Source: a virus
Lineage: Duplodnaviria; Heunggongvirae; Uroviricota; Caudoviricetes
IMG/VR virus record: IMGVR_UViG_2541047910_000003
Location: 1-55,048 of that record
DNA length: 55,048 bases
Strand: one strand, 5' to 3'
This document shows positions 10,695-12,142 of the stretch, in pieces. Every line of letters begins with the position of its first letter. The stretch's first letter is position 1. Position numbers and translations under genes: made by a program. The notes beneath the pieces were generated by a model. That model saw only the letters and a program-made list of their open reading frames with translations. It ran no database searches and was not told the DNA's origin.

Positions 10695-10765
10695 TATTAA
10701 TAATAAAGTAGATAAAGTAAGTAAGATAAGTAAGAAGATTAACTAAGATAGATAAGATTAATAAG
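10695..10765. repeat. AT-rich agataag/taagtaag microrepeat tract (DNA-unwinding-element-like)
   Basis: Directly visible tandem purine-rich AT repeats. Confidence 0.5.
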
Positions 10766-10805
10766 ATCAGAATTCTCTTTCGGTGTCGCCTCTGGCTTTT
10801 CCACC

Positions 10806-10975
10806 GAAAACAATTACACGACTACAGAATGTAGGAAGTGGAATTGTATTGAGGCTTAGTGAAATTACACGAGGAAAGCAGAGTGTAATTGAGCTTTAGC
10901 CGCTCTCTCTTCGAGTAATTACACAACTACAGAGAATAACGAGAGTTATTAAATGTAGGAAGTGGAATTAAGAGG
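10806..10975. repeat. Iteron family 1: two long direct repeats (aattacacRactacagaRaat...aatgtaggaagtggaatt) plus extra aattacac half-sites in both orientations
   Basis: Copies at ~10810-10847 and ~10916-10972; additional aattacacgagg at 10866 and gtgtaattgag at 10889. Confidence 0.6.
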
Positions 10976-11240
10976 TAGAGAGATAGAGTTAACACATAAG
11001 CAATCAGTATGATTGGTTAGGTGATTACTCTTCTGCGCACAGCGCAATAGTATTTCTTCGTGGGCGTTACCGCCAACGATAGTTACACGAAGAAAGTAAC
11101 GCTTTGCTTTCGGTGTGAGCGGAACGGGCCAGCCAACGTAGCCCAAAGGTAGCGGAGTAAGGCTGCTTGCCAGAGAGTGAAGCTAACGCCGGAAGGCAAA
11201 AAGATCATATATATATAGTATAAAGAATATTATTTATATT

Positions 11241-11292
11241 ATTTAATTATAGTATTTAATTATAGTATTTAATTATAGTATTTAATTATAGT
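11241..11292. repeat. Perfect 13-bp tandem repeat x4 (atttaattatagt), AT-rich
   Basis: Four exact head-to-tail copies. Confidence 0.8.
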
Positions 11293-11400
11293 ATTGGTGG
11301 AACTCATTTCCTAGGTAGGTAGGAACTCATTTCCTAAGTAGGTAGGAAACCACTTCCTAGGTTACTTCCTAAATAGATCGGAAATCATTTCCTAGGTGTT
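11293..11400. repeat. Iteron family 2: ~23-bp direct repeats x4-5 (gaaMtcatttcctaRgtaggtag)
   Basis: Copies starting ~11296, 11320, 11344, 11378. Confidence 0.7.
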
Positions 11401-11416
11401 ATTTATACTTATCGGG

Positions 11417-11476
11417 TATCAGTTTTGATAGGGGTATCAGACTTGATAGGGGTAACAGAATTCTGTGGGGGTAGCT
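11417..11476. repeat. Iteron family 3: ~19-bp direct repeats x3 (gggtatcagNNttgatagg)
   Basis: gggtatcagttttgatagg / ggtatcagacttgatagg / ggtaacagaattctgtggg. Confidence 0.6.
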
Positions 11477-11565
11477 CACAGTGACCTACCGTTACTACCA
11501 ACTTTCTTACAGAGAGCATTTCAGATAGCTGAATGTAACCTCTCGTTACATCCATTTGTCACATA

Positions 11566-12052
11566 GCACTCTGTGTAATGCCTTTCTATGTGTGTGCCAT
11601 AATCCCCCTATATTCCCTGTGTAAATCATAGAATAATGCTCTCTATTCCCTGTGTAATTCCATACTAAAAATTCAATGAAAAAGTAGCTTAAAAGTGCAA
11701 TTCTCACTTTCTTCACTTTTACATCACTTTCGCAAAGCCTTGTGTAATGCGGCTTACAGCGCACTATCAGAAATTGTTGGCTAAAAATTGTTCTGCTTGT
11801 TTCTTAATGAGTTTTCTTGTTTGTGCAAATTTTAAAATTTATTTTGTTTTTACAGCCTTATTTCGTGTAATGCGTGGCATAGCAAGCCCTTTTCTTGTGT
11901 TGTCAAGACATTTGGCAACGTTCAAACATCTGTTTAGAAATGCCAAATTGTTGATCTAACAAATAAACCTGTATAAACAGAACACCATTTAATCTATTCC
12001 CCTGTGTATCCATTAGGCATACCAAATGAATACATCTAAATCGTGTAATATT
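11566..12052. promoter_or_regulatory. Array of seven dispersed (c)tgtgtaat(g) motifs upstream of serine recombinase gene; putative recombinase/res-like or regulatory binding sites
   Basis: Motif at ~11568, 11618, 11652, 11742, 11866, 12002, 12042. Confidence 0.4.
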
Positions 12053-12142
12053 CCGTACCTATAAGGCTTGAAACAGACAAAATGAATACGATATACTCAT
12101 TTGCATTGAAGTAGTGCCAAATCGATACATTAAGAGGATTTT

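Follow-up and report, generated by a model that had tools for sequence, protein, structure and literature searches.

The ORF-poor, repeat-dense interval of an integrated island most probably holds the island's vegetative replication origin: a core of about 300 bp (11203-11500) in which a putative AT-rich unwinding element adjoins iterons matched to the resident Rep protein, with iteron remnants of other specificity types to the right of those iterons and a separate structured element of about 440 bp to the left of the AT-rich element. The window, that is, the whole 55,048-nt stretch of viral DNA analysed, had earlier been read from sequence alone as carrying an origin of 1.45 kb; the claim stands for the core and falls for the remaining stretch. 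The proposed placement of an iteron-plus-DUE (DNA-unwinding element) origin between the Rep operon and a serine recombinase gene is supported by the easiest-melting DNA and by covariation of iterons with the Rep domain. The class of origin, an iteron origin, is already known. Features are collected in Table 1.

Table 1. Features of the island and its noncoding stretch (positions are those of the window)
Feature	Position	Strand	Basis or remark
Island att repeat, copy of thrW 3' segment	1447-1471	.	25 nt, 96% identity to 53600-53623 of tRNA-Thr(cgt)
Tyrosine integrase of island, beside att repeat	1558-2892	+	
Rep initiator, 243 aa: type-A winged-helix N-domain, disordered acidic linker, small helical C-domain	8977-9708	-	
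Small RHH-like protein, 62 aa, directly upstream of rep	9644-9832	-	Variant RHH-1
Strong sigma-70-like promoter of leftward rep-containing operon	10149-10177	-	TTGACA-17-AATAAT, TG upstream, 11/12 matches
AGATAAGT-type microrepeat tract	10706-10767	+	Tandem Repeats Finder; length differs among 39 distinct variants
Structured element, ~440 nt, candidate ncRNA: hairpin A twice, hairpin B, GC-rich multi-helix block	10776-11205	+	
Hairpin A, copy 1 (long repeat 1 of the sequence-only reading), short form AATTACAC-N18-GTGGAATT	10809-10848	+	
Hairpin B: GGCU...AGCC base, GA/GA internal loop, apical stem AAUUACAC/GUGUAAUU	10854-10902	+	
Hairpin A, copy 2 (long repeat 2), with 20-nt apical extension AGAATAACGAGAGTTATTAA	10913-10973	+	
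GC-rich block, 3' domain of structured element, with gcgttac/gtaacgc inverted repeat	11030-11200	+	
Predicted DNA-unwinding element: GATC site, TATA run, five 13-mers (11230-11294)	11203-11295	.	Repeats, duplex stability
Type-A iterons, putatively cognate to resident Rep	11299-11321, 11322-11344, 11345-11365, 11380-11402; half copy 11366-11379	+	
Two type-D iterons (GGGTATCAGnnTTGATAG), non-cognate	11414-11449	+	Type-D Rep loci carry longer D arrays
Single type-E iteron	11450-11472	+	Type-E Rep loci carry 5-6 scored copies
Single type-C iteron	11469-11490	+	Mostly 4-5 scored copies at type-C Rep loci
Type-B-like iteron remnant, GTAAC-N5-GTTAC core, start of conserved right flank	11532-11553	+	
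Dispersed YGTGTAAT sites (11573, 11652, 11742, 11865, 12043) and near-matches	11560-12055	+	
Promoter-like TTGGCA-17-TAGAAA in conserved TTGGCA-N24-TGCCAA dyad, upstream of recombinase gene	11913-11941	+	Sequence reading
Second promoter-like site	12068-12097		
Small serine recombinase, 179 aa	12143-12682	+	Pfam Resolvase, E 1e-33
Second thrW 3' repeat, junction of island and P22-like prophage	13966-14038	.	

The Island and Its Repeats

The repeats belong to a phage-satellite-like island of ~12.5 kb, integrated at E. coli thrW (about 1472-13990) and encoding capsid and tail-related genes, with its ORFs intact within the window. Related islands occur in at least seven further enterobacterial genera, and together they may form a previously undescribed family, capsid-encoding and satellite-like, across Enterobacterales; literature searches on the island, on thrW satellites and on CP-933I found no relevant description. 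The location of the origin and the modular specificity of Rep would give a direct handle on whether such islands are replicating satellites.

Within the island the repeats occupy a ~2.1-kb ORF-poor stretch (about 10040-12142) that is matched in 742 of 5426 complete E. coli genomes (~14%). The region is 92-96% conserved over hundreds of genomes, some of which have IS insertions at the repeats. Searched against the phage collection it gave zero matches, and against PLSDB only two records, one of them chromosome-sized. Small ORFs hidden in the stretch have zero Pfam matches and lack conservation. The structured block also contains a 74-aa gene called in Citrobacter and in K. aerogenes, which we regard as spurious because of that position.

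The dense repeat families are real and far above chance. Tandem Repeats Finder (TRF) recovered the 13-mer array (11230-11295; 5.1 copies, 96% match, score 118), in which the four perfect copies of TTAATTATAGTAT noticed earlier are joined by one degenerate copy; the 23-bp iterons (11299-11362, score 100), which run on to 11402 as four full copies and a half copy; an 18-mer array at 11414-11459 (score 71); and the AT-rich AGATAAGT-type microrepeat tract at 10706-10767 (scores 31-67). This last tract is the second least stable 80-bp duplex of the island and is missing from the sequences read for Enterobacter and Klebsiella. Elsewhere in the window only one array, in coding sequence at 25378-25501, scores 100 or more. 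The two long repeats reported from the sequence alone are borne out by copies of two elements, D4 (AATTACACRACTACAGA, at 10812, 10863, and 10917) and D7 (AATGTAGGAAGTGGAATT, at 10828 and 10952, 100% identical), and the gcgttac...gtaacgc inverted repeat can be seen in the sequence. A reported trio of 19-bp copies is in part correct: two belong to one family (Table 1, type D), whereas the third (11450-11472, GGGTAACAGAATTCTGTGGGGGT) represents, with one copy, another iteron family that forms arrays in other islands. A single iteron (11469-11490), a remnant (11532-11553), and a dispersed GTGTAAT motif had been missed.

An AT-Rich Block Abutted by Iterons

The AT block (~90 bp, 6% GC) is directly abutted by iterons phased at 23 bp. 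Its segment 11210-11290 is the least stable 80-bp duplex among 54,968 such windows (6% GC), with a dG of -70 against an island mean of -103 +/- 6.9, 4.8 SD away; the copy number of the 13-mer varies from 2 to 5 among type-A relatives. The array has the form expected of an iteron origin, namely at least three direct repeats of ~17-24 bp with about two-turn phasing (here four and a half 23-mers), and 11203-11295 provides the AT-rich DUE of such origins. DnaA boxes are lacking (zero matches to TTATNCACA at no more than one mismatch between 9937 and 13558), so that initiation is expected to be independent of DnaA boxes, as at the lambda origin. The GTGTAAT sites were considered as DnaA-box variants and dropped by eye, since at best 6-8 of 9 positions match.

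The putative initiator, Rep, matches Pfam HTH_36 weakly (25.2 bits against a cutoff of 25) and no other Pfam family, RepA_N included, at E 0.01 or better. It also matches six PHROG families annotated as replication initiation, O-like or DnaD-like; the "replication initiation O-like" matches are weak (E 8e-5 and 3e-3). An AlphaFold2 model comprises a winged helix (residues 24-114), a disordered linker, and a helical C-domain, and a Foldseek search with this model returned generic winged-helix matches only (E 0.013 or worse), among them 4pql and 4pt7 (E 0.016-0.06), which we take to be staphylococcal RepA_N N-domains. Neither a helicase nor a primase domain was found in Rep with Pfam, PHROG, or the model. 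Relatives of Rep are named "transcriptional regulator" by NCBI.

Covariation of Iterons with the Rep N-Domain

Rep proteins of the island family differ in the N-terminal ~115 aa, and the C-terminal ~125 aa are nearly invariant. Five N-domain types (A-E) are represented in 45 related loci, and the array adjoining the AT block matches the type of Rep in 43 of them (A 5/5, B 4/4, C 19/20, D 10/10, and E 5/6), a count that overstates the number of independent events, given the many closely related or duplicate loci. The two mismatched loci, L019 (type-C Rep, D array) and L039 (type-E Rep, C copies), are metagenome contigs and may be chimeric assemblies. Islands with unlike Rep types share 92-96% identity in their noncoding DNA, apart from a replaced segment at roughly 11280-11480. 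The type-A array is DUE-proximal only in type-A Rep loci, although some type-C loci have it in second place; the remaining types form arrays of 18-24-mers. Of the complete E. coli genomes, 161 have type-A iterons and 159 have type-A Rep N-terminal DNA (at least 90% identity); 260 have type-C arrays, and 240 (full length) to 298 have type-C Rep N-terminal DNA. The sequence-only reading had taken loss of repeat conservation in homologous elements as grounds for refutation; the iteron sequence is indeed not conserved, yet it is replaced in step with Rep.

The pairing of N-domain and iteron also holds in two lineages with a different Rep C-domain. In one, an E. coli island (L074) with different flanks and an MCP 77% identical, an A-like N-domain is found with A-like iterons; in the other, from Enterobacter (L071), a D-like N-domain accompanies D-like iterons and 14-mer AT repeats. 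Iteron-like arrays of 23-32 bp beside short AT-rich tandem repeats are found in Klebsiella, Enterobacter, and the divergent island L074; the one array detected in Serratia is an AT-rich 14-mer.

The iterons are 1.6 kb from rep and the sequence between is conserved, so the association could partly be plain linkage. The two cross-lineage cases speak against this, as does the pattern of the RHH-like protein encoded directly upstream of rep. This protein exists in only three variants: type C and type D islands share an identical RHH-2, and type B and type E islands an identical RHH-3. With three variants for five iteron types the RHH protein does not track the iterons; once suggested as a binder of these repeats, it was rejected in that role.

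We infer that the type-A iterons are recognised by the resident Rep N-domain. In the proposed mechanism, the N-terminal winged helix would bind the four and a half 23-bp iterons, Rep would oligomerise on the array and open the adjacent AT-rich 13-mer block, and the conserved C-domain would recruit a helicase or loader from the host or a helper phage. What sequence comparison shows is the anatomy of the repeats, the instability of the duplex, the covariation of iterons with the Rep domain, and the conserved structure of the left block; binding, melting, and helicase recruitment, together with the transcription of the left block and the mode of replication, are inferred from it. The five orthogonal Rep/iteron pairs would constitute a natural set on a near-identical backbone, of use for questions of initiator specificity, incompatibility, and origin evolution.

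Non-Cognate Iterons to the Right

The stacking of iteron types follows a constant nested order (A, D, E, C, B). The type-D iterons of this island are not cognate because the resident Rep is not of type D. The families at 11414-11553 are probably remnants of origin modules that served other Rep specificity types of the island family; each island would keep its cognate array beside the AT block, with older arrays behind it. The suggestion that several resident DNA-binding proteins converge on the region is not sustained, the 18/19-bp repeats being iterons of Rep alleles that are absent from the island.

A Conserved Structured Element to the Left

The long repeats and GC-rich block, previously counted among the origin repeats, are part of a separately conserved structured element and not of the iteron system. 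The element was found by nhmmer across at least six genera. When 10 lineages were folded independently, all 10 adopted one and the same architecture of two hairpins, in every case stabler on the + strand; folding z-scores were -2.75 to -6.2. In a structure-blind MAFFT alignment, 85.6% of cells in hairpins A and B are paired, against 22-44% with the partners slid; two-sided changes affect seven pairs (18 cells), and the observed covariation score was reached by 0 of 500 shuffles. These figures refer to 12 related sequences, with pairs counted on a structure specified by us and the GC block judged by eye. For hairpins A and B, then, the same structure is kept across diverged sequences, with compensatory changes beyond those in the controls.

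The apical stem of hairpin B is ACUUGCAC/GUGUAAGU, ACCG/CGGU, or CUGG/CCAG in other genera. The insert of hairpin A is present or absent at either copy, depending on the island, and the interval between the copies is deleted in some loci; the apical extension is homologous to a conserved GAUAAC-GGUA-GUUAUC hairpin of other genera. In the GC block, the outer stem reads UUCUUCGUG/CACGAAGAA, UUGUGCC/GGCACAA, or UCGUGC/GCACGA according to genus, and another helix reads CAGCC/GGCUG, UGUCC/GGACA, or UGACC/GGUCA. A U-G wobble is conserved at one pair in nine of the 12 sequences; a 2x2 GA/GA internal loop is also conserved. RNAalifold on MAFFT alignments recovered fragments only, because helix lengths differ; one fragment shows a possible long-range pairing of 5' CGCCCUCUGGCACUUAC with 3' GUGAGCGGAACGGGG.

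Rfam 15 has no match to 10000-12200 at the gathering threshold, and up to E 5 it gives two chance-level matches (19 and 13 bits). A conserved sigma-70 promoter (at least 9 of 12 positions) was not found upstream of the block; one of 12 loci reaches 9/12, and the remaining loci have 8/12 matches in AT-rich DNA. The stretch 10776-11205 is probably a separately conserved structured RNA, a candidate transcribed towards the origin, where it might act in priming, origin activation, or regulation; if it is RNA, it would be a new large ncRNA tied to the origin of a mobile element. A bolder combination, that the 440-nt element is a new large structured RNA transcribed into the origin and that the nested arrays are a record of serial specificity replacement, is tentative, and we lean somewhat against it. 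Were it true, the RNA would be needed for initiation (through priming or R-loop activation) or would serve a satellite-specific regulation, and new Rep N-domains would each have arrived with a new DUE-proximal iteron module, a replacement that incompatibility or competition among co-resident islands might drive.

The Right Flank and the Recombinase

GTGTAAT occurs 14 times in the window, nine of them within 10813-12049, and 17 of the 65 matches to GTGTAATT with no more than one mismatch lie within 10780-12100. Every YGTGTAAT site is invariant among 16 distinct sequences, and the cluster is absent from relatives with a tyrosine recombinase. The Enterobacter island L071 keeps the promoter-like site upstream of the recombinase gene as TTGGCA-17-TATAAA, with nhmmer matches at the spot. 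The closest solved structures to the serine recombinase are gamma-delta and Tn3 resolvase (E 7e-30) and Gin (3e-26). Its slot in the island is always filled by a small recombinase, of either the serine or the tyrosine class.

Alternative Explanations

The region could be a substrate of the serine recombinase, with a res-type site in the palindromes at 10812-10969 or an invertible segment between opposed GTGTAAT clusters. Three palindromes of 34, 28, and 34/53 bp with common AATTACAC/GTGKAATT half-sites do recall the subsite geometry of gamma-delta res, the nearest solved relatives of the enzyme are resolvases, the GTGTAAT cluster is missing where the recombinase is of the tyrosine class, and the constant recombinase slot would suit resolution or inversion somewhere in the noncoding region. 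The palindromes, however, lie 1.2 kb from the recombinase gene and are kept as hairpins, with other stem sequences and loop lengths, in genera that have a tyrosine recombinase and no serine one, which makes them unlikely sites of the serine recombinase. Nor does inversion fit: the anchors flanking the origin have a constant orientation to rep in every locus that holds them, the best 30 of the 742 E. coli genome matches are all single-strand (95-100% coverage), and the arms of a candidate inverted repeat (I1) are only 71% complementary, with central dinucleotides that differ (by reading). An invertible switch was rejected, no inverted arrangement having been seen among the best 30 genome matches or the anchor-bearing loci, and the recombinase explanation as a whole is improbable. 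Slightly more doubtful still is that the repeats are operators through which a Rep-like HTH or the RHH protein regulates divergent operons, with no origin present. The NCBI label of Rep relatives, the palindromic form of type-D and type-E iterons (like that of dimer operators), and the RHH-like gene next to rep would agree with this; but the arrays overlap neither the leftward promoter, ~1.1 kb away, nor the promoter-like sites upstream of the recombinase gene, at a distance of 0.5-0.7 kb, and they adjoin the least stable DNA of the window. Direct repeats phased at 22-23 bp beside AT-rich tandem 13-mers are the architecture of an origin, all PHROG matches of Rep are replication initiators, and the RHH variants are independent of iteron type.

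Slippage or recombination debris in a decaying cryptic prophage remnant is the least credible explanation, and a very remote one. Strains do differ in copy number at the 13-mers, at the AGATAAGT tract, and in the hairpin-A units, and some genomes have IS insertions at the region, but non-functional DNA would be at odds with the 92-96% conservation over hundreds of genomes, a cassette swapped in step with the Rep N-domain, an architecture and structured block kept across genera, and the intact ORFs of the island. A more serious competitor, though unlikely, concerns the left block only, which may act as single-stranded DNA, in the manner of an ssi/sso-like priming signal or a primosome assembly site of the origin. 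Single-strand initiation signals are known beside plasmid origins, the secondary structure of the block is strand-specific and abuts the DUE directly, and no conserved promoter lies upstream. Against this, the block is far larger and more elaborate than known ssi signals, and its conserved U-G wobble and 2x2 GA/GA internal loop read as RNA-like; the favoured + strand would moreover serve as leading-strand template if a fork left the DUE leftwards, and no priming signal is expected there.

Comparison with Known Origins

The structured element can be likened to ColE1 RNA II and to ssi/sso signals in lying immediately upstream of the origin and pointing towards it; RNA II is itself a strand-specific multi-hairpin element of several hundred nucleotides immediately upstream of its origin. 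Unlike the situation in ColE1, a Rep/iteron system is present here and the transcript is putative, and there is no sequence or Rfam relationship between the two. Among satellite islands, SaPI and PICI elements have an ori specific to their own Rep, with iterons, an AT-rich region, and specificity matched between Rep and ori alleles; the present island resembles them in its putatively Rep-specific ori, iterons, and AT-rich region. The SaPI Rep is a self-loading helicase, usually with a primase, and the SaPI ori, directly 3' of rep, has iterons on both flanks of its AT-rich region. In the present island, by contrast, no helicase domain is found in Rep, the proposed origin lies upstream of rep at a distance of 1.6 kb, and iterons occupy one side only.

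The PLE satellite of Vibrio cholerae, a precedent for such an origin, is described, in the part of its published account consulted, as having an origin in a noncoding region with several distinct repeat families, an initiator with a DNA-binding N-domain and a C-domain without detectable relatives that has no helicase or primase activity, and a replication that requires phage factors (PMC7145576); 4PT7 is named there as a staphylococcal RepA_N N-domain (PMC7145576). Nested arrays of alternative specificity were not found in that part of the description (PMC7145576). The present island is PLE-like in being satellite-like, with a probable noncoding origin, several repeat families, and a putative initiator that has a DNA-binding N-domain, a C-domain lacking detectable relatives, and no helicase or primase domain. 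It differs in host clade and gene content, and its Rep, unlike the RepA_N protein of PLE, does not match Pfam RepA_N and has the fold match of a generic winged helix.

Iteron plasmids (RK2 oriV, P1, F, R6K, pSC101) have phased direct repeats of ~22 bp, AT-rich tandem 13-mers, and a winged-helix Rep, often with a multimer-resolution recombinase nearby, and in RK2 oriV a GC-rich stretch flanks the AT-rich region. Phased repeats, AT-rich 13-mers, a GC-rich flank, a winged-helix Rep, and a nearby recombinase are all found here. DnaA boxes, which many but not all such plasmids have, are absent, and the AlphaFold2 model of Rep has one winged helix and an unrelated C-domain in place of the WH1-WH2 arrangement of plasmid Reps. 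Unlike a plasmid, the element is an integrated island with capsid and tail-related genes.

At the lambda ori an AT-rich unwinding region adjoins a set of some four iterons, each roughly 19-23 bp long and several of them with an internal dyad; the N-domain of the O protein sets iteron specificity, its conserved C-domain presumably recruits the helicase loader, and O/ori specificity types are exchanged by recombination among lambdoid phages. The island is lambda-like in its short iteron array with an AT-rich region, two-domain initiator, lack of DnaA boxes, and allelic specificity types, although the link of Rep to lambda O itself is a weak PHROG match (E 8e-5). In lambda, domain and site are inherited together because the origin is inside the O gene; here, conserved DNA separates the iterons from the rep start codon, 1.6 kb downstream of them. 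Unlike lambda, the island is without a gene for a P-like loader, and it has non-cognate iteron arrays stacked behind the cognate one, an ordered series of foreign remnants that would be an unusual trace of specificity switching.

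Genomic Context

The window covers the thrW locus of an E. coli chromosome (tRNA-Thr(cgt), 53605-53680) and carries a P22-like prophage at about 14.0-53.6 kb (13966-53680), with tailspike, ant, sar RNA, and integrase. Copies of the thrW 3' segment at 1447-1471 and 13966-14038 flank another element, distinct from the prophage and about 12.5 kb long (1447-14038); this island and the prophage stand in tandem at thrW. Within the prophage, the sar antisense RNA (17427-17493; Rfam RF00262, 77.7 bits) lies beside ant, the tailspike region is mosaic, matching known phages in short stretches at 83-95% identity, and genes for tRNA-Thr(tgt) and tRNA-Asn are present at 37348-37503.

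The island's long noncoding stretch had no match in a phage collection and was matched in 742 of 5426 complete E. coli genomes, nearly always on the chromosome; in other strains the island directly adjoins proA/thrW or neighbours CP4-6. Homologs of its capsid protein occur in Citrobacter, Klebsiella, Enterobacter, Cronobacter, Dryocola, Serratia, and Sodalis, and the island looks like a member of an undescribed satellite-like family. Defence genes directly flank related islands elsewhere: KwaA/KwaB beside one (L010:63-1661), and a LlaJI-type restriction enzyme, an AAA_5 ATPase, and a DNA methylase beside another (L072:14548-18653).

Features of the island and of the recombinase slot in related islands (L-numbers)
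Feature	Coordinates	Strand	Remarks
Tyrosine integrase with DUF6538			First in gene order
Dit-like protein			Second
611-aa protein, tape-measure-like (TMP-like)			Third
Lambda-E-like major capsid protein (MCP)			Fourth; several small ORFs next
243-aa HTH_36 protein (Rep)	8977-9708	-	Matches six PHROG families of replication initiators
62-aa RHH-like ORF and 60-aa ORF			After Rep
Stretch of ~2.1 kb without credible ORFs			Between 60-aa ORF and serine recombinase
AGATAAGT microrepeat	10706-10767		TRF
13-mer array	11230-11295		TRF: 5.1 copies, 96%, score 118
23-mer array	11299-11362, extending to 11402		TRF
18-mer array	11414-11459		TRF
Promoter-like TTGGCA-17-TAGAAA for recombinase	11913-11941		Within TTGGCA-N24-TGCCAA dyad
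Promoter-like site for recombinase	12068-12097
Small serine recombinase, 179 aa	12143-12682
Small tyrosine recombinases in the same slot in other genera	L069:1968-2585, L071:3166-3726, L073:2138-2689, L076:3021-3599, L078:2581-3141, L080:3061-3675

Origin and Initiator

All repeat families listed in the sequence-only reading are present, the tandem arrays being recovered by TRF and the long and inverted repeats confirmed. A single further array in the 55 kb reaches a score of 100: a 42-bp tandem repeat with three copies (25378-25501; score 109, 68% match), which lies within a P22-like prophage ORF. GC content is as low as 0.255 over 11200-11399 and as high as 0.515 over 11000-11199. A nearest-neighbour stability scan placed the least stable 80-bp duplex among all 54,968 windows at 11210-11290, on the 13-mers (dG -70 versus an island mean of -103 ± 6.9; GC 6%), and the 23-bp repeats start 4 bp past the 13-mer block. 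No DnaA box with at most one mismatch was found in 9937-13558.

Homologs of Rep fall into allelic types in which the N-terminal ~115 residues, containing the winged-helix domain, are strongly diverged and the C-terminal ~125 nearly invariant; an AlphaFold2 model shows a confident winged helix (24-114), a disordered linker (128-179), and a small helical C-domain. The comparative evidence given below weighs most; on it, 11203-11402 is probably the origin of the island and the 243-aa protein its initiator, which would bind the iterons (the 23-bp repeats) and melt the adjoining AT-rich DNA for replication. Insertion sequences have entered the ori cassette or its borders in some islands: one related island (L006) has such an element in its AT-rich leader, and IS1, IS5, IS903B, ISKpn26, and ISEc33 are annotated under matches in E. 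coli genomes (H62, H67, H68, and H71); origin DNA rich in AT seems prone to such insertions.

Pairing of Rep Type and Iteron Family

Islands of different Rep types (A-E; the window's Rep is type A) have noncoding DNA that is 92-96% identical, save for about 11280-11480, which is wholly replaced. Every Rep type comes with an AT-rich leader and an iteron family of its own: GGAACTCATTTCCTAGGTAGGTA for type A, GATGTAACnTATCGTTACTACC for B, CCCTAGCTCACAGTGACCTACC for C, GGGGTATCAnnnTTGATAGG for D, and GGTAACAGAATTCTGTGGGGGTG for E. Among 45 typed loci from NCBI assemblies, metagenomes, and IMG/VR, Rep type equals the type of the array adjoining the AT block in 43 (A 5/5, B 4/4, C 19/20, D 10/10, and E 5/6); the two mismatched loci (L019 and L039) are both metagenome contigs. 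Counts in complete E. coli genomes run in parallel, with type-A iterons in 161 and type-A Rep N-terminal DNA (at least 90% identity) in 159; for type C, the arrays are found in 260 genomes and the Rep N-terminal DNA in 240-298.

Mere linkage of neighbouring sequences could be proposed as the source of this pairing, and three observations argue against it. The gene for the RHH-like protein directly adjoins the variable part of rep, yet exists in just three variants; types C and D share an identical RHH-2, types B and E an identical RHH-3, and because each of these variants spans two Rep types, the neighbourhood of rep has been shuffled by recombination while the pairing of Rep N-domain and iteron persisted. 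A more distant E. coli island with different flanks (L074; MCP 77% identical) combines an A-like Rep N-domain and an unrelated C-domain with A-like iterons, and an Enterobacter island (L071) combines a D-like N-domain and another C-domain with D-like iterons and 14-mer AT repeats. Finally, four composite cassettes (L026, L031, L062, and L067) contain two full modules each, and the cognate module always adjoins the conserved left flank. Two further relatives of Rep (L068, match 5001-5486, and L066, match 4-555; 44-45% identity) are not assignable to types A-E and may represent further specificity types; L068 carries B-type iterons.

Iteron Remnants

The window's cassette reads A (4.5 copies), D (two), E (one), C (one), and a B-like repeat. 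The arrays are nested across loci: A-D-E-C-B in type-A islands, D-E-C-B in type D, E-C-B in type E, C-B in type C, and B only in type B. The 18/19-bp families are therefore remnants of modules cognate to Rep alleles absent from the island, rather than sites at which several resident proteins converge, as the sequence-only reading had proposed; of the three ~19-bp repeats that it grouped as one family, all are present, and the third copy (11450-11472) belongs to a different one. On the simplest reading, new specificity modules would have been inserted serially at the position proximal to the AT-rich unwinding element, with older arrays eroding. In a Klebsiella island (L069), two distinct arrays of 32-bp repeats (4180-4264 and 4320-4403) neighbour one another beside AT-rich 13-mers, so stacking of more than one array seems general in the family. 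Specificity of the island's iteron origin is modular and, we infer, serially replaced.

A Structured Element Left of the Origin

The best cross-genus conserved noncoding segment found by nhmmer is 10776-11215, with matches in Enterobacter, Klebsiella, K. aerogenes, Citrobacter, Cronobacter, Dryocola, and several IMG/VR contigs. It is independent of Rep type and is retained where a small tyrosine recombinase stands in for the serine recombinase. The long repeats (copies of hairpin A) and the GC-rich block belong to this element and are not iterons. The sequence-only interpretation is supported in part: for an iteron origin, but not for these parts or for the 18/19-bp repeats.

Alignments show that helices are retained despite different sequences. 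Hairpin B has the apical stem AAUUACAC/GUGUAAUU in E. coli and ACUUGCAC/GUGUAAGU, ACCG/CGGU, or CUGG/CCAG elsewhere; the 20-nt insert of long repeat 2 is a conserved apical hairpin, GAUAAC-GGUA-GUUAUC (AAUAAC/GUUAUU in some lineages). In the GC-rich block, whose helices were judged by eye and whose folding z-scores are modest, relatives have UUGUGCC/GGCACAA or UCGUGC/GCACGA in place of the outer stem UUCUUCGUG/CACGAAGAA, and UGUCC/GGACA or UGACC/GGUCA in place of CAGCC/GGCUG. Folded independently, ten lineages all arrive at one two-hairpin architecture, each with a + strand more stable than its - strand (by 6-20 kcal/mol); folding z-scores for the element range from -2.75 to -6.2. In a MAFFT alignment built without reference to structure, 85.6% of cells are paired, versus 22-44% with partners slid, two-sided changes affect seven pairs (18 cells), and the observed covariation score was reached by 0 of 500 shuffles.

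We take the element to be a genuine structure that is conserved and strand-specific, and most likely an RNA read towards the origin; the main alternative is a single-stranded DNA priming signal. Rfam has no entry for the element, and no conserved sigma-70 promoter was found upstream of it. Hairpin A is duplicated in E. coli and its copies recombine, the insert being present or absent at either copy and the intervening stretch deleted in some strains. A 19-bp imperfect inverted repeat at 10608-10666 (TGACGCAAAGAACACCTTT / AATGCTGTTTCTTGCGTCA), a terminator-like hairpin on the - strand, lies between a leftward promoter and the element.

Right Flank and Recombinase

The right flank (11500-12142) is highly conserved. 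Its TTGGCA-N24-TGCCAA dyad (11913-11948) is also found in the Enterobacter island L071, and nhmmer places two more islands (L072 and L078) there with a differing recombinase; the dyad may serve to regulate the recombinase promoter. The motif GTGTAAT is strongly clustered, with nine of its 14 exact matches in the window falling within 10813-12049; the left ones are mostly stems of hairpins A and B, and the five right ones are single + strand sites. Relatives with a tyrosine recombinase lack the cluster, and L074 has another dispersed motif, TCGCTATACGCTCA, in its place. Because its closest solved structures are the gamma-delta and Tn3 resolvases, the serine recombinase is the obvious, if unproven, candidate for binding GTGTAAT. 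Neither the loci with both anchors nor the 30 best genome matches showed any inversion. In the E. coli thrW lineage, a small serine recombinase occupies the slot adjoining the long noncoding region; in other genera, a small tyrosine recombinase (183-205 aa) takes this place, which looks like replacement by an unrelated enzyme with the same job.

Comparison with Known Systems

The island origin lies outside the initiator gene, unlike lambda O/ori; Rep has no Pfam RepA_N match, which separates it from that family, and has no helicase domain, which together with a different layout sets the system apart from SaPI origins. Nor does the origin belong with the DnaA-box-dependent plasmid origins. Functionally, it resembles lambda ori/O and iteron plasmid origins, and among satellites the PLE origin with its RepA_N initiator is most similar: it too has an origin in a noncoding region with several repeat families and an initiator whose N-domain binds DNA and which has no helicase activity (PMC7145576). 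The island origin belongs to an undescribed island family, and a candidate new structured RNA adjoins it.
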